Source: Dehalococcoidia bacterium (GTDB lineage: Bacteria; Chloroflexota; Dehalococcoidia; Lucifugimonadales; VXLM01). From it: a stretch of 24,000 nucleotides of DNA. Shown here one piece after another: positions 3,237 through 24,000 of the stretch. Both the position numbers and the translations under genes were made by a program. The notes below the pieces were generated by a model, which ran no database searches, was not told the origin of the DNA, and saw only the letters and a program-made list of their open reading frames with translations. The stretch is from assembly GCA_965197705.1 (NCBI GenBank), contig OZ240223.1, positions 1,796,975-1,820,974 of the forward strand, in the 5' to 3' direction. Each line of letters opens with the position of its first letter. Position 1 is the stretch's first letter.

Positions 3237-4266
3237 CCAAGTCCCCTACTTCCGAGGTGGAGTAGCCCATCCGGCCTGCGCTGAGGCTCTCGATCTTCTC
3301 GGACGTAACCGACATGATCGCGCTCTCGACCTGCATTGCGGCCGTCTTCTCGCCGAGGAAGTCGAGCATCATTCCCATCGCGCCGATTGCGGCAAGCGGA
3401 TTGATGACGCCCTGCCCTGCGTACTTCGGGGCGGAGCCTCCCATCGGCTCGAACATCGAGAAGCCGCCCGGGCGAATGTTCCCGCCCGCTGCGATGCCGA
3501 GCCCGCCCTGAATCATGGCTGCCAGGTCGGTGATGATGTCGCCGAACAGGTTGTCGGTGACAATCACGTCGAACCACTCAGGGTTCTTGATCATCCACAT
3601 GCAGGTCGCGTCGACGTGCGCGTAGTCGAGCTTCACGTCGGGGTACTCTTCGGCGACCTCGTGGAAGGTGCGCTCCCAGAGGTCCATGGCATATGTGAGC
3701 ACGTTGGTCTTGCCGACGAGCGTGAGCTCCTTGCGGTCGCGGGTTTGGGCAAGGTCGAAGGCGTACCGGATGCAGCGCTCGACGCCCTTCCGTGAATTTT
3801 CTGAAATCTGAATGGCGATCTCGTCCGGCGTTCCCTTGTCTCGAAACTCACCGAGACCCTTGTAGATGCCCTCGGTGTTCTCGCGTACGACGACGAAGTC
3901 GATGTCCTCCGGCCCCTTGTCCTTGATGGGAGTCCAGACGCCCGGAAAGAGCTTGACGGGGCGTAGGTTGATGTACATCTCGTAGTGGAAGCGGAGCGTC
4001 AGCAGAATCCCCTTTTCGAGGATGCCCGGCGAGACGTCCGGGTGGCCGATGGCGCCGAGGAAGGCGACATCCAACGTACCGAGCTCGTCGCGCACGGAGT
4101 CGGGGAGGATCTCGCCCGTCCTCTTGTAGCGCTCGCCGCCGATGTCGTACTTGACCACCTCGTAGTCGATGCTGTTCTTCTCAGCGACGGCCTGCAGCAC
4201 CTTCATGGCCTCGTCGGTCACCTCAGGCCCGGTGCCGTCTCCCGGTATCGTTCCAATCTTGTACAT
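3220..4266 (-). CDS. Isocitrate/isopropylmalate dehydrogenase family protein (tartrate/D-malate dehydrogenase-like paralog)
   Basis: [62 protein letters not shown] and [19 protein letters not shown]. Start chosen at ATG 4266 (GAGGAAA RBS) rather than the track start at 4302. Its 3' end overlaps the leuB 3' end by 17 nt. Confidence 0.8.
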
Positions 4267-4304
4267 CGAATTTCCTCTGGGTATAGGTGTCGGGACAGGC
4301 AAGT

Positions 4305-4310
4305 ATTATA
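4305..4310 (-). promoter_or_regulatory. Candidate -10 box (TATAAT on minus strand) for the dehydrogenase paralog
   Basis: The complement of attata at 4305-4310 is a perfect TATAAT, 39 nt upstream of ATG 4266. No good -35 was seen. Confidence 0.3.
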
Positions 4311-4658
4311 GCCGTTCGGCGGAGTGGCCGAAAAGTTTTTTGTATAGTAGGACGTGACTGGCGAAGGGCAGGTGGGGTGTGTTAACCGTCGGACAGTCGG
4401 TACGCGAGTCGGGGATTAGGTGTTTCAGTCAAAAGCGCTTCTACATTGTTGGCGGGGGGGTCACGTTTAACATGACATTTCCTGACAGAACCTGACATCG
4501 TGTGTTTTCCCCACCGTCTTCGGGGCGAATGCCGTGAAGTGGACGGAAACTCAACTGCGACCACGATAGGTCATATGTGCTAGTGAGTCAAGTCGGGTCA
4601 GACGCGGGGACAAAGGGAATGCTTGGTAGGACGCGACTGTCTGCTGCGGGCTGCGAGG

Positions 4659-5012
4659 CTAGCGTCGGCTGCGGCTTCGGTCTTCCTTGATTCGAGCGCT
4701 GCGACCTGAGCGGCCGCGGAGGTAGTAGAGGCGGGCTCGACGCACCTTGCCGTGTCGTACGACCTTGACGCTCTGGACGATGGGCGAATGGACGAGGAAG
4801 GTGCGCTCGACGCCCACCTCATGCGTTACGCGGCGCACGGTGAAGCTCTCGCCCGGACCGCGACCCCGCCTGCGAAGGACGACGCCCTCGAAGACCTGCG
4901 CCCGCTCCCGGTCGCCTTCCTTAACCTTGATCGTTACCCGGACGGAGTCTCCGGGGCGAAAGTCTTCGACTTCGGGATTAGGCGCGACAGGCGCGAGGTG
5001 ATGGGCTTCCAT
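4659..5012 (-). CDS. rplS: 50S ribosomal protein L19
   Basis: [45 protein letters not shown]...[33 protein letters not shown] is a typical L19 sequence. It lies directly downstream of trmD, as in the conserved operon. Confidence 0.95.
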
Positions 5013-6385: not shown

Positions 6386-6892
6386 CTAGTGAGAGGGGTG
6401 GCCGCGCCAGCCCTGGAGCATTTCGAGGCCGTGCGTCAGGGCTGTCAACGCGACCTCAAGGGTCTCGCGGACTCCCTTGGGGCTGCCCGGCAGGTTGACG
6501 ATGAGACAGCCGTTGCGGACGCCGACGACGGAGCGACTCAGCATGGCCAACGGCGTGATCCGCATCGTCTGCGACCTCATGGCCTCTGCGATGCCCGGAA
6601 CCTGGAACTCTACAACGGCGGCGGTCGCCTGCGGGGTGACGTCGCGTGGGCCGAGGCCGGTGCCACCGGTCGTAACGATGACGTCCACTTCGCCCCCGTC
6701 GCTCCATGTGGTTAACCGTTCAGCTATCCGGTCGGCTTCGTCAGGCACGATATCGCGGTGGACAAGTCTGAACCCGCTCGCGGCCATCATCTCGACGACG
6801 GCGTCGCCGCTCGTGTCCTCGCGTTCACCCTTTGCGCCTGCGTCGCTGCTGGTGAGCACGGCGAAGCTGAATTTGTGCTCTGAATCGGTCAT
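6386..6892 (-). CDS. mog: Molybdopterin adenylyltransferase / molybdenum cofactor biosynthesis protein (MogA/MoaB family)
   Basis: VIVTTGGTGLGPRDVTPQAT, PGIAEAMR and VNLPGSPKG are hallmarks of the MoCF_biosynth domain. The size (168 aa) fits. Confidence 0.85.
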   Translation of the reverse strand: MTDSEHKFSFAVLTSSDAGAKGEREDTSGDAVVEMMAASGFRLVHRDIVPDEADRIAERLTTWSDGGEVDVIVTTGGTGLGPRDVTPQATAAVVEFQVPGIAEAMRSQTMRITPLAMLSRSVVGVRNGCLIVNLPGSPKGVRETLEVALTALTHGLEMLQGWRGHPSH

Positions 6893-7069
6893 CGGAACTT
6901 TCTAACAGTCCAGTCGATGTTTAGAAAAAGTATAAAACTACAACTAAAATCCCTTGCGCGCCGTTCGTCCCATCTGTGAGACTCGGACATAACGGCCTTT
7001 AGGTGCACTGCACCGGGCTAGCAGCACATTAACAGTGTAGCACGCAGCATTGCTCTTTTAGGGTGCAAG

Positions 7070-7969
7070 GTGATTCATCACAAGCCGGTGATGGTAGATG
7101 AGGTCGTATCGGCGCTTCAGCCGCGTTCAGGCGGCGGTTACATCGACTGCACGACGGGTGAGGGCGGTCACGCAGAGGCTATTCTTGGTAACTGCGGTCC
7201 CCCTGCCCGACTGCTCGGTCTCGACTTGGACAGAGAGGCGCTCGCGGTTGCCGGAGAGCGGCTTTCCGGGTTTCGTGAGACTTCTACGTTGGTCGAGGCC
7301 AGCTATGTGAATATCGCCGAAGTCGCCGCCAAGCAAGGTTTTCTCCCGTGCGACGGGGTCTTGTTCGATCTCGGAGTCTCGTCACTCCAGCTCGAAAGCG
7401 CCTCCCGCGGGTTCGCCTTCTCGAAGGAAGCGACCCTGGACATGCGGTTCGGCCCTACCATCGGGAGATCGGCAAGGGAGATCGTGAACGAAACGGATGA
7501 GACGGACTTGGCGAATCTCATTTACCGGCTGGGCGAAGAACGCAGGTCGCGCCGGATCGCCCGGGCGATCGTCAGAGCGCGACCGGTCGGGACGACCGTT
7601 GAACTGGCTGACGTTGTAATCGGAGCGGTCGGATGGCCGAGCCGGGCTCGCAGGAGGACCCACCCCGCAACCCGGACCTTTCAGGCCCTCCGAATCGCCG
7701 TGAACGGCGAGCTTGACAACGTGGAGATGGGAATCAGGGCGGCGATAGGAATCTTGAGGCAAGGCGGACGGCTGGTGGTTATCAGCTATCACTCCCTGGA
7801 AGACCGGTTGGTGAAGAACCTGCTTCGTGAGGAGTCGAAACCGGTCGACGAGAGTCACTCCCCTGCCCTGCGACTTATAACGAAGAGGGTGATTAAGCCG
7901 GACACCGCAGAGATCGAGGCGAATCCTCGAAGTCGGAGCGCAAAAATGCGAGTGGCGGAACGATTGTGA
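7070..7969 (+). CDS. rsmH: 16S rRNA (cytosine1402-N4)-methyltransferase
   Basis: HKPVMVDEVV, YIDCTTGEGGHAEAIL, FDLGVSSLQL, FSF..EATLDMR, ISYHSLEDRLVK and NPRSRSAKMRVAE. GTG start. Confidence 0.9.
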   Translation: MIHHKPVMVDEVVSALQPRSGGGYIDCTTGEGGHAEAILGNCGPPARLLGLDLDREALAVAGERLSGFRETSTLVEASYVNIAEVAAKQGFLPCDGVLFDLGVSSLQLESASRGFAFSKEATLDMRFGPTIGRSAREIVNETDETDLANLIYRLGEERRSRRIARAIVRARPVGTTVELADVVIGAVGWPSRARRRTHPATRTFQALRIAVNGELDNVEMGIRAAIGILRQGGRLVVISYHSLEDRLVKNLLREESKPVDESHSPALRLITKRVIKPDTAEIEANPRSRSAKMRVAERL

Positions 7970-8064
7970 CGGGGAGCGGAGATCGGTCCTAGAGCGTGTT
8001 ACACGATAGAGAAGGAAAAACGACTGGCGGCATGGCAAAGCGAAACGACAATGGAGAAGCCCAT

Positions 8065-9342
8065 ATGGTGTCAGACGAGATCGTAGCTGCTATAGACGTA
8101 GGTACCACGAAAGTTTGCACTATTGTGGGCCGGAAGGTCGGCAAGAACGGTATCCAGATACTCGGTTACAGCACGGCCAAGAACTACGGCATGAGGAAGG
8201 GCGTCGTATCGGACGTTTCGGCGGCTGAGCGCGCGGTACGTGTCTCCATCAAGGCCGTCGAGGACAAGACGGGTCACAAGGTGGACTCCGCGTTCGTGGG
8301 CGTCACGGGGGCGCACGTTCGGTTTGAGAACCGTCATGAAAGGCTGGAAATCGAGAATCGAAAGGGCATCGTTACCGCCGATGACGTGGCGAGCGCTCCC
8401 AAGAAGCTAAGCGAGTCAATCGACGTGCCGGGTAGGACGGTCATCCATGCCAACTCCATCAGCTATACGCTGGACGGTGAACCGGGCATCCGGCATCCCG
8501 TTGGAATGCACAGCAAGGAGATGCAGGTAGAGGCGCATTTCGTGACGGGGTCCAACACGTTCATAGACCGTCTCGTCGATGTGATCGAAGTATCCGGCGT
8601 CAAGATAAACAGCCTCGTGCTCGAACCGCTTGCGAGCGGCCTCGCCGTTCTCACACCGGAAGAGCGCAAGAAGGGCGCTGTCATCGTTGATATAGGCGGC
8701 GGCACGACGGATATCGTCGCCTTCAAGGGCAGCAGCATCTACTACACCGGGGTCATTCCGGTCGGCGGCTTCCAGTTCACCAACGACATCGCCCTGTCGT
8801 TCAGTACACCGTTCGAGGCCGCGGAGGCAATCAAGCTGGAGCATGGAAGCGCGGAGTTTCAGCCGGCGTCGGCCGGCGAACAGATCCTCGTTCCGGTCAT
8901 CGGGCGGGACAAGCAGCTGAAGGTAAGCCGGCTTGAGATATGCCAGCTGGTGCGCGAGCGGGCTATGGAGCTCGCGCGGATGATCAAGGTAAAGCTCGAC
9001 TCGGAGCGGGTGGGGAATGGTGAGGACTCCGTCCTCGTCCTCACCGGCGGAGCATCCAATATGCCTGGGTTCGCCGACCTCGTGCAAAAGAGCGTCGGCA
9101 TCGAAGTGCGCCATGGCGTGCCGGACGTGCGTGGCACCGTGCCCGCCGAACTGAGGGACCCTGTTTACGCTACGGCGATCGGCACACTCCTTTGGGGATT
9201 GACCGAGTATGTCCCCGATGAGGCGGGCTTCGGATTGAGGAACGGGAACGGCAATGCCAATGGGCATGACTTCAAACACGCAGCGGAATCGAACGGACTC
9301 TTCGGAAGTTTGAAGCGCCGGCTTGGCGCGCTCATATCGTAG
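8065..9342 (+). CDS. ftsA: Cell division protein FtsA
   Basis: Actin-fold motifs AIDVGTTKVCTIVG and VDIGGGTTDIVAF, with a C-terminal amphipathic tail GLFGSLKRRLGALIS. Start chosen at ATG 8065 (GGAGAAG RBS). In-frame alternatives are ATG 8032 and the track start at 7996. Confidence 0.88.
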   Translation: MVSDEIVAAIDVGTTKVCTIVGRKVGKNGIQILGYSTAKNYGMRKGVVSDVSAAERAVRVSIKAVEDKTGHKVDSAFVGVTGAHVRFENRHERLEIENRKGIVTADDVASAPKKLSESIDVPGRTVIHANSISYTLDGEPGIRHPVGMHSKEMQVEAHFVTGSNTFIDRLVDVIEVSGVKINSLVLEPLASGLAVLTPEERKKGAVIVDIGGGTTDIVAFKGSSIYYTGVIPVGGFQFTNDIALSFSTPFEAAEAIKLEHGSAEFQPASAGEQILVPVIGRDKQLKVSRLEICQLVRERAMELARMIKVKLDSERVGNGEDSVLVLTGGASNMPGFADLVQKSVGIEVRHGVPDVRGTVPAELRDPVYATAIGTLLWGLTEYVPDEAGFGLRNGNGNANGHDFKHAAESNGLFGSLKRRLGALIS

Positions 9343-16837: not shown

Positions 16838-18068
16838 GTTCCGGTTCCGCATGTATTTGACAAATATAAGAAGTAGGTTAGTATTATGTATGATCCTATA
16901 GGGAGGACATACGAAGACATGCCTGCTCTCAAGTACAAGGTGGAGTTGAACGAGTCGGAACGGACACATCTCAAAGAGATAGCGAGTCGTGGGGAGACTT
17001 CGGCCCGTAAGGTCAAGCGAGCGCTGGTGTTGCTTAAGGCAGACGAAGGTCTGATCGACCGTGACATCGCCAGCGGACTATTGATAAGCGCATCCACGGC
17101 CGGACGCGTGCGCACGCGGTTTGTGAAAGAGGGGCTCGACTGTGCGATCAATGAGCGGGCGCGCCCGGGACAGAAACGCAAGTTGGACGGTAAACAGGAA
17201 GCGCATCTGATAGCCATTGCGTGCAGCGATGCACCCGATGGACACGCGGACTGGACGCTGCAACTCATTGCCGACAAGGCGGTGGCGATGGGGTTTGCCG
17301 AGAGCATCTCCCTCGAGACGGTGCGCCAGATACTAAAAAAAACAAACTCAAACCGTGGAAGAAGAAGGAGTGGTGCATCCCCGAAGTGAGCGGAGAGTTC
17401 GTGGCTCGAATGGAGGACGTGCTGGAACTGTACCATCAAGACTACGACCCGGACCATCCCGTGGTCTGCTTCGACGAGACATCCAAGCAGTTGGTGGCTG
17501 ATAAGAGGCCCGCTATCAGGGCCAAGCCGGGTCGGGTGGAACGATATGACTACGAGTACAAGCGAAACGGGACACGAAACCTGTTCATGTTCTGTGAACC
17601 GAAGGGCGGATGGAGGCACGTCGAGGTGACCGAGCGCCGTACTGCCGTAGACTTCGCTCATCAGATGAAATGGCTGGTTGATGAGGCATATCCTCACACC
17701 GAGACGATACGGCTGGTGCTGGACAATCTCAACACTCACAAGCTGGGTTCGTTGTACGATGCCTTCGAGCCAGCCGAAGCGCGGCGTATAGCCAAGCGCC
17801 TGGAGCTCCATTACACTCCGGTACACGGCAGTTGGCTGAACCCCGTATCGAGTACGGGGCGGGCTATGGCTGAGATAGAGCTGAGCGTCTTGAGCAACCA
17901 GTGTCTTAACCGTCGAATCAGCGACGAGGTGGTACTGAAACGAGAGGTCTTGGCGCTGGAACGTGAACGCAATGAGGCTGTCGCCATCATAGACTGGCGC
18001 TTCTCCACTCAGGACGCTCGCACTAAACTTCAACATATCTATCCATCATATTCAAGTTGAACCGGTAC
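16838..18068 (+). mobile_element. IS630-family insertion sequence (1231 bp) with TA target duplications
   Basis: Imperfect terminal inverted repeats: gttccggttccgcatgtatttga at the left, and gtaccggttcaacttgaatatga as the reverse complement of the right end. TA lies at 16836-16837 and 18069-18070. The element encodes an HTH plus DDE transposase. Confidence 0.85.
16886..18060 (+). CDS. IS630-family transposase, two frames joined by a -1 slip at the A8 run 17335-17342
   Basis: Frame 0 ends ...ETVRQILKK then TNSN... Re-reading one A gives ILKKNKLKPWKKKEWCIP, continuing into ORF 17221-18060 (VCFDETSK, YEYKRNGT, LVLDNLNTH, HYTPVHGSWLN..MAEIE). It is either programmed or transcriptional slippage, or an A9-to-A8 frameshift mutation. 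Confidence 0.8.
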
Positions 18069-18089: not shown

Positions 18090-19768
<1,679 letters not shown>

Positions 19769-19772
<4 letters not shown>

Positions 19773-20077
19773 TTCCCGCGGTCGAGGAGCGAGCAGACGA
19801 GCTGGAACGTCTCTGTCTCATCTACGGCGTGCGATGGCTTGACCTGTTCGGGTCGGCCTCAACGGGTCTGTATAATTCGGATGAGAGCGACTTGGACTTC
19901 CTTGTCGAGTTCCAACCGGCGGCCCTCAATGCCTATGCGGACGCTTACTTTGGCCTGCTGGAAGCTCTCGTCAGACTCTTCGAGCGGCCTGTAGACCTCA
20001 TTGTGGAGTCGGCCATCAAGAATCCCTACTTCCTCCAGTCGGTGGAGCAGACAAGGACTCCCATCTATGAGGCTTGA
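19769..20077 (+). CDS. mntA: Nucleotidyltransferase-domain protein (MNT antitoxin of an MNT/HEPN pair)
   Basis: LFGSASTG...SDLDFLVEF is the minimal NTase GS-x(n)-DxD motif. The protein is 102 aa. Its ATG overlaps the hsdM stop (ATGA at 19769-19772). Confidence 0.85.
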
Positions 20078-20351
20078 GGCTCAGAAGTACCTATATGACA
20101 TCCAGCGTGCCGCCGGTTTGATACGAGAGTTCACCGACGGCAAGACGTTTGCGGACTACGAAGGCAACGCCATGCTGAGATCGGCCGTGGAGCGCCAATT
20201 CGAGGTCATCGGCGAGGCGATGGCCCAGCTTGCCAGGACCGATGAGCCGGTGGCTGACCGAATCAGCCAATATCAACGCATCATCGCCTTCCGCAATGTG
20301 CTGATTCATGGGTACGCCGATGTGGACGACCGGCTGGTGTGGGACGTGTGA
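20067..20351 (+). CDS. hepT: HEPN/DUF86 toxin (HepT-like)
   Basis: [19 protein letters not shown]... with the Rx4H motif in AFRNVLIHGY. I chose ATG 20067, which overlaps the mnt 3' end by 11 nt, rather than the track start at 20001. Confidence 0.85.
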   Translation: MRLEAQKYLYDIQRAAGLIREFTDGKTFADYEGNAMLRSAVERQFEVIGEAMAQLARTDEPVADRISQYQRIIAFRNVLIHGYADVDDRLVWDV

Positions 20352-20418
20352 TCCATACCAACCTCCCCAGCCTCTGTCGAGACGTTGATACTCTGTTGAG
20401 GGAGAAATAACCACGGAC

Positions 20419-20580
20419 CCGCAGCCCGACGACGGCATCCCCTTCGAGGACAAGATGTCCCGCCTCGCCACCCAATGGCGCGAGCAGCAGACCGAGGCGC
20501 AGCAACTTGACGCAGCCATTGAAGAGAACCTCAGGGACCTAGGGTTCGGTTCAAACTTAGGCGATACAAGCTCCAAGTGA
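20419..20580 (+). pseudogene. Orphan duplicate of the hsdM 3' end (last ~53 codons)
   Basis: 20419-20490 is identical to 19617-19688. It then continues in frame as a diverged tail TEAQQLDAAIEENLRDLGFGSNLGDTSSK*. An in-frame stop at 20386-20388 lies upstream and there is no start codon. Confidence 0.85.
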
Positions 20581-20653: not shown

Positions 20654-21997
20654 ATGACGGTGGGTAACTTCATGGAGCAGGTTGAAACAGTTTACGGTTT
20701 GGTCTCTTCTAGACTTGCTGAGGCCTCTTTAGGGAGCCTATGCGACAATCGTGATGGCATCCAAACAGGGCCTTTTGGGAGTCAACTCCACCAACGGGAT
20801 TATGTCGAAGAAGGGACGCCCATCATAACTGTGGAGCATCTAGGCGAGAATCGCATCACTCAAGAAAATATGCCGTTCGTTTCGGACCACGATAGGCAAA
20901 GGTTGCAGCGATATACCCTCCGTGAAGGCGACATCGTCTTTAGTCGTGTCGGCTCAGTTGACCGACGTGCCCTTGTAAGGCAAGCAGAAGACGGGTGGCT
21001 ATTCTCGGGACGTTGTTTGCGAATGAGACCGGACGACAGCAAGATCGACCCTACCTACTTGTCTTATTTCTTCGGGTTGCCGGCTTTCAAGGAATACATC
21101 AGATCCATTGCGGTGGGCGCAACGATGCCGTCTCTGAACACTAGGATAGTGAGCGACGTATCGATCCTTTATCCTCCCCTGCCCCAACAGCGCGCCATCG
21201 CCCACGTCCTCGGCACACTCGACGACAAGATCGAGCTAAACCGCCGGATGAACGAGACGCTGGAGGAGATGGCGCGGGCGCTCTTCAAGTCGTGGTTCGT
21301 AGATTTCGACCCGGTTCGCGCCAAGTTGGAGAGCCGCTGGCGCCGCGGCGAGTCCCTCCCCGGCCTCCCCACTGACCTCTACGACCTCTTCCCCGACCGT
21401 CTGGTTCCCTCCGAGCTTGGGGAAATCCCGGAGGGGTGGGAGATTGGGACTGTCGGGGATGTTGCAGAACAGCGCAGAGACGGAGTGAGTCCAGAATTAC
21501 TTGACCAGGATACTCCGTACATTGCGCTTGAACACATGCCCAAGCGCTGCATTGCGCTTGGGGACTGGGGTTCGGCTGATGGCCTAGCCAGTAGTAAATT
21601 CAGATTTGAACAAGGCGACATCCTGTTCGGGAAGTTGCGTCCCTATTTTCACAAGGTCGGCATCGCTCCGTTGAATGGGGTATGCTCAACAGACATCGTT
21701 GTGATATCACCACAAGAGAATAGCTGGTTCGGTTTCGTCCTCGGCCATGTATCGAGTTCGGCCTTCGTGGACTACACGGATGCGGCTTCGACAGGAACCA
21801 AAATGCCTCGAACCAAGTGGGCGGACATGGCTCTGTACAAAGTTGCTCTACCGGACTCAGCGGTGACCAAAGCCTTCGACGCAATGATTAAGCCGTCGGT
21901 TACGGGCATTCTGTCGACAATCCATGAATCCCACTCCTTAGCTGCCCAGCGGGATGCACTGCTACCGAAGCTGGTGTCGGGGGAGGTGGGAGTATGA
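20654..21997 (+). CDS. hsdS: Type I restriction-modification system specificity subunit
   Basis: Two target-recognition halves separated by the conserved coiled-coil spacer PLPQQRAIAHVLGTLDDKIELNRRMNETLEEMARALFKSWFVDFDPVR. The C-terminal conserved repeat is LAAQRDALLPKLVSGEV. An alternative start is ATG 20672. Confidence 0.9.
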   Translation: MTVGNFMEQVETVYGLVSSRLAEASLGSLCDNRDGIQTGPFGSQLHQRDYVEEGTPIITVEHLGENRITQENMPFVSDHDRQRLQRYTLREGDIVFSRVGSVDRRALVRQAEDGWLFSGRCLRMRPDDSKIDPTYLSYFFGLPAFKEYIRSIAVGATMPSLNTRIVSDVSILYPPLPQQRAIAHVLGTLDDKIELNRRMNETLEEMARALFKSWFVDFDPVRAKLESRWRRGESLPGLPTDLYDLFPDRLVPSELGEIPEGWEIGTVGDVAEQRRDGVSPELLDQDTPYIALEHMPKRCIALGDWGSADGLASSKFRFEQGDILFGKLRPYFHKVGIAPLNGVCSTDIVVISPQENSWFGFVLGHVSSSAFVDYTDAASTGTKMPRTKWADMALYKVALPDSAVTKAFDAMIKPSVTGILSTIHESHSLAAQRDALLPKLVSGEVGV

Positions 21998-22815
21998 GGA
22001 AGATGGACCTTGTGGGAATTCGCGCAAAGCTCCTCCGAGCAGAGCATCAATTGAAACAGATCAAAAGTGAAGCGAATGGGCTTTGCTCGGACGTGCAGCA
22101 CGGCATTGTTAGAGAAGTGCGCCCGGACGTTGACAAACAGGTCTGGGTGTATCGTGGTGAGACGCCTAATGCCCCTATTAGGTGGTCAGTGATCATTGGC
22201 GAAATCCTGTACAACTTGCGCTCCGCTCTCGATCACCTAGTCTGGCAGTTAGTGCTCGCCAATGGACAAACTCCGGGACGCCATAACGCATTTCCAATCA
22301 CCAATGACGCTCAGGGTTGGGAGAAGACTAAGGATAATCTTCTAAACGGTGTCAGTTCAAGACATAAGTCCATGATTGGTTATCTACAACCATATACCGG
22401 AGGAATTAATCTCCCCTTCGATGTTTCCAAGTTCAAGCTCCTAGACGACCTCAGCAACATAGAAAAACACCGATATCTGATTGTAGCGTTCATAGCTTCT
22501 ATGGGACCTGCTAACGATGGAATCCTTGGGATCGACCCACCCGAGCTAGTTGATTCGAGCGTAGGAGCGCCATTCGAAGGATTAGCTAGGTTGGGGAAGA
22601 TTGAGAATGGCAAAGAACTGCTCGAATTCAACAATTCACACATAGAGGTCAGTAGCCCTTCCTTTCAAATCGCCCTCTGCTTCGCAGATAAAGAATTGAT
22701 GTATAGCTCTGCCCCAAATATCCTGGCGCAGTGTCTGCGCACGGTTAGAGGATCTATAGACTTTCTCACGACTCCTATGAGTAGTGGCTTTGTGGAAGCA
22801 CCAGGCAGAACTTGA
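21994..22815 (+). CDS. Hypothetical protein, 273 aa, with an Rx4H (HEPN-like) motif; family not recognised
   Basis: The ATG overlaps the hsdS stop (ATGA), with a GGGAGGTGGG RBS upstream. The motif is IIGEILYNLRSALDHLVWQLV (R76-x4-H81). G+C is lower than the flanks by eye. The coding call rests on ORF length, coupling and RBS. Confidence 0.7.
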   Translation: MRKMDLVGIRAKLLRAEHQLKQIKSEANGLCSDVQHGIVREVRPDVDKQVWVYRGETPNAPIRWSVIIGEILYNLRSALDHLVWQLVLANGQTPGRHNAFPITNDAQGWEKTKDNLLNGVSSRHKSMIGYLQPYTGGINLPFDVSKFKLLDDLSNIEKHRYLIVAFIASMGPANDGILGIDPPELVDSSVGAPFEGLARLGKIENGKELLEFNNSHIEVSSPSFQIALCFADKELMYSSAPNILAQCLRTVRGSIDFLTTPMSSGFVEAPGRT

Positions 22816-23033
22816 CTACCCTCACCGAAGCCGACGTTGAGGAGGTCACCCTCGAGTGGCTGGCGCACGGTCGGACCATCGCCACAACCTTACGATCAGA
22901 CGCTCCATTAGGTTGCAATCTGACGCACCCTAACATTGCAATTGGCCGAAGCATAAGGTTGCAATCGGACGATGCAGCCGACTCCGCCATATTCCCGCTA
23001 TGCCGAAGGGCCGCTGGTGGAATCTCTGGCTGA
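22812..23033 (+). pseudogene. Remnant hsdR 5' end (first 18 codons are HsdR-like, the rest unrelated)
   Basis: MTTLTEADVEEVTLEWLA (22812-22865) parallels MTSITEAVVEEAALAWLA at 23930-23983. After codon 18 the similarity is lost. The TTG start overlaps the upstream stop (TTGA). Confidence 0.55.
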
Positions 23034-23181
23034 CTCCCCGGCGGTGCTCATCCACGGGCCCCGTGAGTCCGGCAAGACCACACTGGCCCGTGTCGTAGGA
23101 GATCCTCGGGGATACGACTACATCAGTTTTGACGACGACATCGCCCGGACCGCTGCCACCTTGCGTACCCGTCCGTTATAG
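22972..23181 (+). pseudogene. 5' fragment of an AAA-type ATPase (AAA_14/DUF4143-like), truncated after ~60 aa
   Basis: YAEGPLVESLADSPAVLIHGPRESGKTTLARVVG (Walker A) followed by GYDYISFDDDIARTAA. Full-length relatives, as I recall them, are about 400 aa. This ORF ends at 23181, inside the palindrome that precedes the antitoxin gene. Confidence 0.5.
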
Positions 23182-23199: not shown

Positions 23200-23220
23200 A
23201 GTTCATTGGAGGGCCAGATC

Positions 23221-23517
23221 GTGGTTGTCTCCGAACCCCGCCGCGTGTGGACGGTTGCCGAGGCGAAGGCGAAGCTGTCGGAAGTCCTGCGTCTCGCCGA
23301 GACGGAGGGTCCTCAGCGGATTGGCGCGCGGAAGCACTTCGTCGTCATGCCCGAGAGTATGTGGCGTGCCCATGCGCCGGAGCGCAAGCCCCTCGGCCGG
23401 TGGCTCATCGAGGACATGTCGCGCGGGACCAACCTCGAAATCCCCGATCGGGGTGGCGACTCCCGTCGCGAGATACCGTTCGCGGATTGGGATGACGACA
23501 ACCGGGACGACAAATGA
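23221..23517 (+). CDS. Phd/YefM-type antitoxin (VapB-like partner of the PIN toxin)
   Basis: VWTVAEAKAKLSEVLRLAETEGPQRIGARKHFVVMPESMW is a typical Phd/YefM N-terminal fold signature. The GTG at 23221 has GGAGGG 7 nt upstream; the track start is 23206. The stop overlaps the toxin ATG (ATGA). Confidence 0.75.
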   Translation: MVVSEPRRVWTVAEAKAKLSEVLRLAETEGPQRIGARKHFVVMPESMWRAHAPERKPLGRWLIEDMSRGTNLEIPDRGGDSRREIPFADWDDDNRDDK

Positions 23518-23933
23518 CCGGATTCCTTCTCGACACGAACGTGGTGTCCGAGATGACCAAGAGTCACCCCAGCCCCCCGGTTATCGCATTTCTCGAGCAG
23601 CCGTCTGATCTGTGGCTGGCGTCAATGGTAGTGCACGAATTGGAGTTCGGATTGCGGCTCGTGCCTGCGGGACAGCGTCGAGAGCGGCTGCGAGCCGATC
23701 TGTCACGGCTCCTCACTGGCTACGCCGACCGCATACTCCCGATCGATGAGGCCGCCGCGTTGTGGGCGGCACGATTTCGGGCGAACGCCATCCGCTCAGG
23801 GCGTCCCCCCGATCTGATCGACATTCTCATCGCGGGGACGGCTAAAGCCCATGATTTGACGGTTGCCACGCGCAATGTCAGGGACTTCGAGGGACTGGGA
23901 GTTGATGTCGTCAACCCTTGGAACCCCCATTGA
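23514..23933 (+). CDS. vapC: PIN-domain ribonuclease toxin (VapC/FitB-like)
   Basis: FLLDTNVVSE (first acidic residue), VVHELEFG, DILIAGTAKAHDLTVATRNVRDF and NPW; 139 aa. Confidence 0.88.
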   Translation: MTGFLLDTNVVSEMTKSHPSPPVIAFLEQPSDLWLASMVVHELEFGLRLVPAGQRRERLRADLSRLLTGYADRILPIDEAAALWAARFRANAIRSGRPPDLIDILIAGTAKAHDLTVATRNVRDFEGLGVDVVNPWNPH

Positions 23934-24000
23934 CCTCCATCACCGAAGCCGTCGTTGAAGAGGCCGCTCTAGCATGGCTTGCAGACCTCGGCTGGAGCGT
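23930..24000 (+). CDS. hsdR: Type I restriction enzyme R subunit, 5' end only (continues beyond the window)
   Basis: The TTG overlaps the vapC stop (TTGA). MTSITEAVVEEAALAWLADLGWS matches the N-terminal pattern I recall for many HsdR proteins, and hsdM and hsdS lie upstream on the same strand. Only 23 codons are visible. Confidence 0.6.
   Translation, partial: MTSITEAVVEEAALAWLADLGWS

Follow-up and report, generated by a model that had tools for sequence, protein, structure and literature searches.

An uncharacterised two-domain protein family embedded in a mosaic type I restriction-modification operon of a Dehalococcoidia bacterium

Embedded effectors of restriction operons and the X273 gene

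Accessory genes embedded in restriction operons have repeatedly proved to be second-line immune effectors, as exemplified by PrrC, Ronin and the HEC systems. PrrC is silenced by the restriction-modification (R-M) enzyme EcoprrI and released by T4 Stp (PMC3710099, PMC1484252). In Ronin, the toxicity of RonA is suppressed by HsdMS and freed by the anti-restriction proteins Ocr, ArdA and Aop1, which provides a second precedent (10.1101/2023.04.06.535777). Genes that lie inside Hma, BREX, DISARM and type I R-M loci frequently turn out to be defence systems, a relation described as 'guilt-by-embedding', and 7 of 9 Hma-embedded candidates that were tested were active (10.1101/2024.01.29.577857). Here we describe X273, a gene located at positions 21994..22815 on the + strand of a 24,000-nucleotide (nt) stretch of contig OZ240223.1 from a Dehalococcoidia bacterium, which is referred to as the window. 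X273 is an ATG-to-TGA open reading frame (ORF) that encodes 273 amino acids (aa), lies directly downstream of hsdS in a type I R-M operon and belongs to a large uncharacterised family. An embedded accessory gene of effector-like character in a type I operon is a known kind of arrangement. No description of the protein family or of its putative catalytic domain turned up in the sources searched.

The closest described arrangement is that of EcoprrI (prrA/hsdM-prrB/hsdS-prrC-prrD/hsdR), in which, as in the window, an effector-like gene lies between hsdS and hsdR. The proposed logic is alike as well, namely a latent second line of defence silenced by the R-M proteins (PMC3710099, PMC1484252). The two proteins differ in their build, since PrrC joins an N-terminal ABC-type nucleoside triphosphatase (NTPase) to a C-terminal HEPN-like nuclease, whereas X273 lacks an NTPase motif and resembles PrrC neither in sequence nor in profile. 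Neither the ABC-type NTPase nor the PrrC/RloC nuclease domain was detected in X273 with Pfam and NCBIfam models, and its predicted fold consists of a helical and a beta domain. In addition, PrrC occurs almost only in R-M loci, whereas about 18% of the X273 family is linked to R-M genes, a share that reaches about half among relatives of at least 41% identity. Ronin (ronA with an hsdS and hsdM decoy) resembles the locus in that an effector gene is tightly linked to hsdS and hsdM. In contrast to X273, a soluble two-domain protein of 273 aa whose operon keeps hsdR, RonA is a membrane peptide of 61 aa and hsdR is usually missing. The HEPN families embedded in R-M loci (HEC-08/DUF3644, ApeA, Abi2/AbiD-F and pEK499_p136) share with X273 a single embedded protein with a conserved R...H on a helical domain, and HEC-08 is a proven defence protein (10.1101/2024.01.29.577857; PMC3710099). 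However, the Pfam models of these families miss X273 and 68 of its relatives, and the position of the motif in the fold is unlike. Specialists expect embedded genes of unknown function in such operons; X273 is unusual in its family size and its structural definition.

The start of X273 is tied to the end of hsdS. The ATG (21994-21996) overlaps the hsdS stop codon TGA (21995-21997) in an ATGA, and a Shine-Dalgarno (SD)-like sequence, GGGGAGGTGGGAG, lies within the 3' end of hsdS at 21980-21992 with its GGAGG core 7 nt upstream of the ATG, so that positions 21980..21997 of the + strand read as a translational coupling signal. The ORF list and the sequence agree with the original prediction on the start codon, the length of 273 aa, the overlap with hsdS and the SD just upstream. 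At the other end, the stop codon TGA (22813-22815) overlaps a TTG at 22812 that opens an HsdR-like N-terminus, LTTLTEADVEEVTLEWL. This TTG had been read as opening an HsdR-like N-terminus, and the sequence does match HsdR N-termini, but it begins a mere 5' remnant and the true hsdR starts at 23930. The claim that X273 is built into the operon rather than lying beside it is borne out, as the ATGA and TTGA overlaps at its two ends recur in homologous loci of several phyla. X273 is co-oriented and translationally coupled with hsdS and, ancestrally, with hsdR.

Pairwise dN/dS of X273 against three orthologs that are 91-95% identical (loci L013, L080 and L001) ranged from 0.14 to 0.38. Together with the ORF, the SD and the ATGA overlap, these values show that X273 is a real and conserved gene under purifying selection. 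An exact look-up of the protein returned no identical entry on record. The base composition of the gene departs from that of its surroundings, with a GC content of 0.486 in X273 and 0.601 in the whole window. In 500-nt windows, GC was 0.47-0.48 in X273 and 0.51-0.54 in the first half of hsdS, while the flanks reached 0.58-0.68, and the AT-richness of these two segments, earlier judged by eye, is therefore now a computed result. The foreign composition, from which a separate acquisition of X273 had been proposed, is thus borne out. The gene has a GC content of about 0.48 in six hosts whose own GC ranges from 0.56 to 0.62, and such a low value across hosts is typical of horizontally mobile cargo.

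The family to which X273 belongs is large, phylogenetically broad and invisible to Pfam, NCBIfam, PADLOC and PHROGs. A word-indexed search found 296 homologs, those listed being 43-95% identical, with no Pfam domain in any of them. A profile built from 43 close members (alignment A1) retrieved 13,470 cluster representatives at E<=1e-3, of which 7,026 remained at E<=1e-10, and a second alignment (A2) was assembled from 68 diverse, distant members that are 25-46% identical. Pfam, NCBIfam, PADLOC and PHROGs gave no match above noise for X273 or the 68 diverse members, the only Pfam or NCBIfam match at E<=1 being a noise-level PF22339 (E=0.21), which agrees with the initial failure to place the protein in any described family. 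Pfam revealed no informative domain fusion in the longer members (330-537 aa), and NCBI names the family members only 'hypothetical protein'. The homologs were further examined in 76 genome loci, all from metagenome-assembled genomes of Dehalococcoidia, Acidobacteriota/Terriglobia, Solirubrobacterales and other Actinomycetota, Nitrospirota, Latescibacterota, Binatia and Alphaproteobacteria. The nearest loci, with 91-93% identity, are from Dehalococcoidia, which by itself would make this class the probable source of the window.

Conserved residues, predicted fold and relation to HEPN proteins

AlphaFold2 yielded a confident model of X273 from the 43-sequence alignment, with a predicted local distance difference test score of 85 and a predicted TM score of 0.82. 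The model comprises two domains. The conserved N-terminal domain (N-domain; aa 1-165, 21994..22488, + strand) contains a helix at 7-36, a beta-hairpin at 38-53 and helices at 62-89, 106-116, 122-130 and 146-158, in line with the helical N-terminal stretch noticed in the original prediction. The variable C-terminal domain (C-domain; aa 166-273, 22489..22812, + strand) is beta-rich at 165-230 and carries a helix at 240-259. Among the distant members the mean frequency of the top residue is 0.46 in the N-domain versus 0.24 in the C-domain, and many profile matches span only positions 1-165/170 in proteins of about 260 aa. Foldseek found no significant structural match of the C-domain in the PDB. 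Against the BFVD collection, Foldseek retrieved two unnamed viral proteins that share the X273 fold (E=1.6e-13 with a TM score of 0.65, and E=1e-3), and no annotated protein.

The most conserved block of the family, G69-E70-x3-N74-x-R76-S77-x2-D80-H81-x2-W84-Q85 (22201..22248, + strand), forms the polar face of helix 62-89. E70, R76, S77 and D80 are invariant among the 43 close members, and H81 is present in 42 of them. Among the 68 distant members, position 70 is E or D in all 68, R76 is retained in 66, S77 in 63 and D80 in 67. H81 is retained in 55 of the 68 (81%) and replaced by Y in 8 and by Q in 5. A second motif, D/E157-K158-H159-R160 (22462..22473, + strand), lies at the end of helix 146-158 and exceeds H81 in conservation, with D157 in 65, K158 in 66, H159 in 67 and R160 in 64 of the 68 distant members. 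It corresponds to the polar patch LSNIEKHRYL that had been pointed out earlier and is 94-99% conserved. Other near-invariant residues of the distant set are K12 (64/68, the remainder R), R15 (62), A16, G69, Q132 (64) and P133 (66). Helix 62-89 is amphipathic, and its conserved polar positions 65, 69, 70, 73, 74, 76, 77, 80, 81, 84 and 85 lie off the hydrophobic stripe, therefore these residues should be exposed. Judged from the sequence pattern, the basic, acidic and histidine residues of the N-domain look like a catalytic or ligand-binding pocket.

The original prediction had noted the HEPN-like spacing of R76-x4-H81 and held a new abortive-infection or RNase effector to be plausible. In its full form, this reading would make the N-domain a bona fide HEPN domain with R76-x4-H81 as its metal-independent RNase site, and X273 an abortive-infection RNase. 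The codons of R76 (22219-22221) and H81 (22234-22236) lie where they had been placed. HEPN proteins are marked by a four-helix up-down bundle, by an Rx4-6H motif that lies where core helix 3 ends and the loop leading to helix 4 begins, with a polar residue following the R, by an acidic residue that helix 2 carries, by an insert that separates helix 2 from helix 3, and by a profile similarity that is recognisable between families; HEPN folds can be circularly permuted, and many HEPN families are embedded in R-M operons (PMC3710099), a setting that fits X273. Several features of the conserved block also agree with a HEPN site, since R76 is invariant or nearly so, H81 is kept in 42/43 close and 55/68 distant members, S77 is a polar residue following the R, and E/D70 supplies an acidic residue upstream. 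The expectation that both R76 and H81 are conserved thus held for R76 but only in part for H81, which is Y or Q in 19% of the distant members, whereas H159 is 99% conserved. An Rx4H occurs by chance in 33% of X273 shuffles and an Rx4-6H in 69%, and the pair carries weight only because it is conserved in homologs.

The position of the motif is less favourable to a HEPN assignment. In the AlphaFold2 models R76 and H81 occupy mid-helix positions in the second long helix (62-89), which also carries E70, rather than the end of helix 3. According to the model, the motif position would fit only under a circular permutation as in KEN domains; if the domain is read in this permuted way, the motif comes to lie on helix 3, and the beta-hairpin occupies the place where HEPN domains usually carry the insert between helices 2 and 3. 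Among the top Foldseek matches in the PDB, HEPN toxins outnumber every other class, both with the full-length model (2hsb, 1ufb, 7ae9, 1jog and 7bxo among the best) and with the N-domain alone (7ae9, 7ae2, 7ae6 and 7ae8), but the helical HEPN core expected from such a comparison came up only at insignificant scores (E 0.97-9.5, probability <=0.21, TM score 0.24-0.46, root-mean-square deviation 7-15 A). The near-full-length sequential alignments of Foldseek would pair helix 62-89 with HEPN helix 2 and not with the catalytic helix.

HepT-type toxins give the best, though insignificant, PDB matches, and a genuine HepT copy is present with its MNT partner in the same operon (19769-20351). X273 differs from it in being twice as long, in its extra beta-rich domain and in having no conserved MNT partner. 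The comparison by hhalign with a 26-sequence HepT/DUF86 alignment gave a probability of 11.7% and left the R-x4-H motifs of X273 and HepT unaligned, pairing 'LDHLVWQ' of X273 with 'DDRLVWD' of HepT, downstream of the RNVLIH of HepT itself. No HEPN-clan Pfam model was matched by X273 or any of the 68 diverse members at E<=1. The profile, hhalign and motif-position results do not bear out a HEPN identity, which stands as unproven rather than refuted, and Foldseek and profile searches found no confident non-HEPN fold either. We regard a true HEPN RNase as rather improbable. Other folds were considered for X273 and rejected as having no profile or fold support, including a tyrosine recombinase (R-K-H-R-H-Y), ParB/Srx ('DGxHR'), PLD ('HKD'), PD-(D/E)xK, RNase III and the HD domain.

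Genomic context of the family and possible functions

Type I R-M genes adjoin the X273 homolog in 14 of the 76 genome loci (about 18%), and in 10 of these 14 hsdS lies directly upstream on the same strand. The homolog is embedded between hsdS and hsdR in the window and in L002, L006, L008, L013, L014, L017, L021, L025, L033, L080 and L081. The 4-nt overlap with hsdS seen in the window is found in L002, L004, L013, L014, L021, L080 and L081, and in L002, L013, L021, L025, L080 and L081 the stop of the homolog overlaps an ATG that belongs either to hsdR or to an hsdR remnant (MTT[LI]TEADVE...). Loci with hsdS upstream often have 4-nt overlaps on both sides of the homolog (L002, L013, L021 and L025). 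The linkage is denser among relatives of at least 41% identity, where type I R-M genes are present in 8 of 15 genome loci and in 2 of 6 further contigs.

Other defence genes are also found next to family members. On the same strand upstream, L022 carries a 1,273-aa SIR2_2 protein, L029 a NACHT NTPase, and L016 an MmeI-like R-M enzyme with a 4-nt overlap. An N6_N4_Mtase-Mrr fusion is encoded on the opposite strand in L001, and McrBC genes lie nearby in L080. Mobile elements are frequent neighbours as well. In 12 of the 76 loci (L028, L032, L035, L043, L046, L052, L057, L061, L066, L067, L074 and L075; about 6500-8900 in each full-flank locus), the homolog is immediately preceded by an IS1595-family (ISXO2-like) transposase, in either orientation. 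L043 and L074 have in common a 2.3-kb unit of transposase and homolog with 82% nucleotide identity, whose divergent intergenic region contains an 18-nt palindrome, GTGTAAAGCTACTTGACA; a search for terminal inverted repeats around the IS1595 and homolog unit gave nothing convincing. A serine recombinase lies upstream on the same strand in L059, and rve and IS66 transposases are among the other neighbours. Clustering of the neighbouring ORFs from about 80 loci brought out no recurrent neighbours other than HsdS, HsdR, the IS1595 transposase and an rve-type integrase; the remaining loci show heterogeneous housekeeping neighbourhoods. The homologs are thus strongly linked to R-M and defence loci, as had been expected, and the neighbourhoods support a defence context and an enrichment of the family beside R-M, defence and mobile genes.

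Family members are also carried by plasmids of Streptomyces and Paenarthrobacter and by phages, and are rare in IMG/VR (7 loci). Temperate actinophages often keep prophage-expressed genes close to the integrase on the strand opposite to the tail genes. In the Gordonia phages ZiggyZoo and Samba, gene 32 is a family member on the lysogeny side, a few genes from the serine integrase. In ZiggyZoo (L078, MW601225.1) it is found at 3941-4768 as a 'hypothetical protein' on the strand opposite to the tail genes.

We tentatively favour the explanation, at somewhat less than an even chance, that X273 is a functional, horizontally mobile accessory effector embedded in a type I R-M operon, that it represents an undescribed two-domain family, and that it is analogous to PrrC or RonA. 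Its coupling with the hsd genes, the two-domain build with a conserved polar cluster and the mobility of the gene are the observations on which this explanation builds. The N-domain would be the enzyme, its basic, acidic and histidine cluster acting on a phosphate-containing substrate, most likely RNA or DNA, and the variable C-domain may be a sensor or docking module that recognises a trigger or a docking partner. By analogy with the known systems, X273 would be made together with HsdS, HsdM and HsdR and serve as a second-layer effector, abortive or backup, and like PrrC and RonA it could be held inactive by the R-M proteins and released when a phage blocks restriction. A bolder form of this proposal, which we consider quite doubtful, is that the N-domain, with E70/R76/S77/D80 plus D-K-H-R, represents a catalytic fold that is new and distinct from HEPN, and X273 the prototype of single-protein abortive effectors (>7,000 clusters) that are caged by HsdM/HsdS and fire when phages inhibit restriction. 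Such an anti-anti-restriction layer of the PrrC/Ronin kind would be common among uncultivated members of the Chloroflexota, Acidobacteriota, Actinomycetota and Nitrospirota. If X273 is an effector, the anti-phage repertoire gains a new catalytic domain, and the principle of the restriction enzyme as guard of a latent toxin extends to phyla with almost no experimental knowledge. Because the predicted structure is confident and the candidate active-site residues are sharply defined, X273 is directly testable.

Several observations weigh against an embedded effector that works with the R-M enzyme. About 60 of the 76 loci lie outside R-M, many of them among housekeeping genes, and since most members are outside R-M loci, dependence on R-M cannot be general. 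The gene also outlives the operon: L001, whose homolog is 91% identical, keeps only an 11-codon hsdR remnant, and L003 keeps an HsdS fragment. That the gene survives the decay of the R-M operon speaks for an autonomous function. No conserved small antitoxin-like partner gene was found when ORFs of at least 45 aa within 2.5 kb were clustered from about 80 loci, which leaves the restraint of a stand-alone toxin unexplained. Database searches likewise revealed no significant similarity of X273 to a characterised protein or fold. The PADLOC-DB models, which cover HEC and PDC candidates and those of the guilt-by-embedding study, left X273 unmatched and gave two noise matches among the 68 members; sequence and profile searches of the PDB with A1 and A2 returned only noise, for example Ta1041 at E=0.55 over a 24-residue stretch; and Foldseek searches of the PDB with the full-length and N-domain-only models of X273 returned nothing below E=0.8.

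The main rival explanation, which we consider unlikely, holds that X273 is an autonomous selfish or mobile gene, either a stand-alone defence or toxin gene or a passenger, which rides in an insertion-tolerant type I operon without interplay with HsdMSR. The many copies without R-M genes, the copies that survive beside decayed R-M remnants, the IS1595 transposase upstream in 12 of 76 loci with the unit common to L043 and L074, the rve and IS66 transposases and the serine recombinase among the other neighbours, and the low GC in every host examined all agree with such a gene. So does the make-up of the operon in the window, a mosaic of cassettes flanked by duplicated gene ends (MNT-HepT, the hsdM 3' remnant, the hsdR 5' remnant and Phd/VapC). 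Embedded genes are common and often independent systems (10.1101/2024.01.29.577857). However, the stop/start overlaps on the hsdS side and the hsdR side are conserved in Dehalococcoidia, Nitrospirales, Terriglobia and Binatia, which argues against pure chance, and about half of the close subfamily lies in R-M loci, above what random insertion predicts.

The same coupling bears on another alternative, in which X273 is not toxic but serves the restriction enzyme as an accessory subunit or a regulator, with a role for example in assembly, target choice or the alleviation of restriction. The coupling of X273 with hsdS as well as hsdR points to co-production in stoichiometric amounts, and the relative in L016 is coupled to a single-chain R-M enzyme of the MmeI-like type. 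We nevertheless hold a subunit role to be highly improbable, because most homologs, those of phages included, occur without any R-M genes, and the conserved K, R, E/D, R, S, D, H, Q and D-K-H-R resemble a catalytic or ligand pocket and not a docking surface. Classical type I R-M enzymes are not known to require a subunit of this kind.

Some loci carry two family copies. In L025 both copies (6925-7416 and 8001-8798) lie between hsdS and hsdR, and duplicated copies are also present in L028 (7016-7504 and 8001-8711) and L061 (1687-1995 and 2367-2861).

Mosaic architecture of the restriction operon

The R-M island of the window is marked at its left edge by an IS630-type transposase (16886-18060), present as two overlapping ORFs (HTH_32, then DDE_3) that likely reflect a frameshift and adjoining pdxA, proC and yggT. 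The operon itself runs on the + strand and begins with hsdM (18090..19772), which encodes the 560-aa methyltransferase subunit (PF02384, E=5.9e-102; PF12161). An MNT-HepT toxin-antitoxin cassette (19769..20351; PF01909, E=4.7e-10; PF01934, E=5.7e-18) lies between hsdM and hsdS, and the MNT start overlaps the hsdM stop. HepT (HEPN/DUF86; 20067-20351) carries RNVLIH and is the genuine HEPN protein of this operon; it probably starts at 20067 and not at the TTG at 20001, because its homologs are 113-116 aa long. Between HepT and hsdS lies the 3' remnant of a second hsdM (20407..20577), which matches residues 506-559 of the intact HsdM at 72% identity and still ends in its own stop codon. It is followed by hsdS (20654..21997), encoding the 447-aa specificity subunit (PF01420, E=2.5e-15), and by X273.

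Downstream of X273, the hsdR 5' remnant (22812..22883, + strand), whose TTG overlaps the X273 stop, leaves homology while its ORF of 73 aa continues to 23033. Only about the first 17-31 residues of this ORF resemble HsdR, and a full HsdR used as tblastn query matched with its residues 1-31 only. The true hsdR start (LTSITEAVVEEAALAWLADLGWS...) is located at 23930..24000 on the + strand and runs past the end of the window, and its first 69 nt are 67% identical to those of the remnant. The interval between the remnant and the true hsdR holds three further genes on the + strand, a truncated AAA_14 ATPase of 69 aa (22972-23181), a Phd-type antitoxin (23206-23517) and a VapC PIN toxin (23514-23933) whose stop overlaps the hsdR start in a TTGA. 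A promoter and terminator scan detected no terminator-like site on the + strand between hsdM and hsdR, its counts being at shuffle level, and Rfam and tRNA scans found no Rfam family or tRNA in the window.

The hsdM remnant mirrors the hsdR remnant across the hsdS-X273 block, and toxin-antitoxin cassettes occupy both junctions of this block. The series of hsdM remnant, hsdS, X273 and hsdR remnant looks like a module that was recombined into a resident operon through conserved gene ends. Even if X273 only hitch-hikes, the locus documents the collection of cassettes at the hsdM 3' and hsdR 5' ends of type I operons, and the 5' end of hsdR looks like a hotspot for cassette exchange.

Two homologous loci have the same architecture with other cargo. 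In L013 (8819-10136) the X273 homolog is followed by an hsdR remnant, Fic and a full hsdR, and in L081 (7813-8836) by an hsdR remnant (HSDR_N, 103 aa), a HicB-like gene, DUF433 and a full hsdR. The 11-codon hsdR remnant of L001 (8810-8900) is joined to a peptide resembling the C-terminal end of HsdS, QRDALLSRLVSGDVKV. In L077 (6496-8004) and L081 (5322-7004), the gene calls join a Pol-beta/MNT nucleotidyltransferase domain to HsdS in a single ORF, and upstream of these called MNT-HsdS ORFs both loci carry an NTase_sub_bind (HEPN-like) gene.

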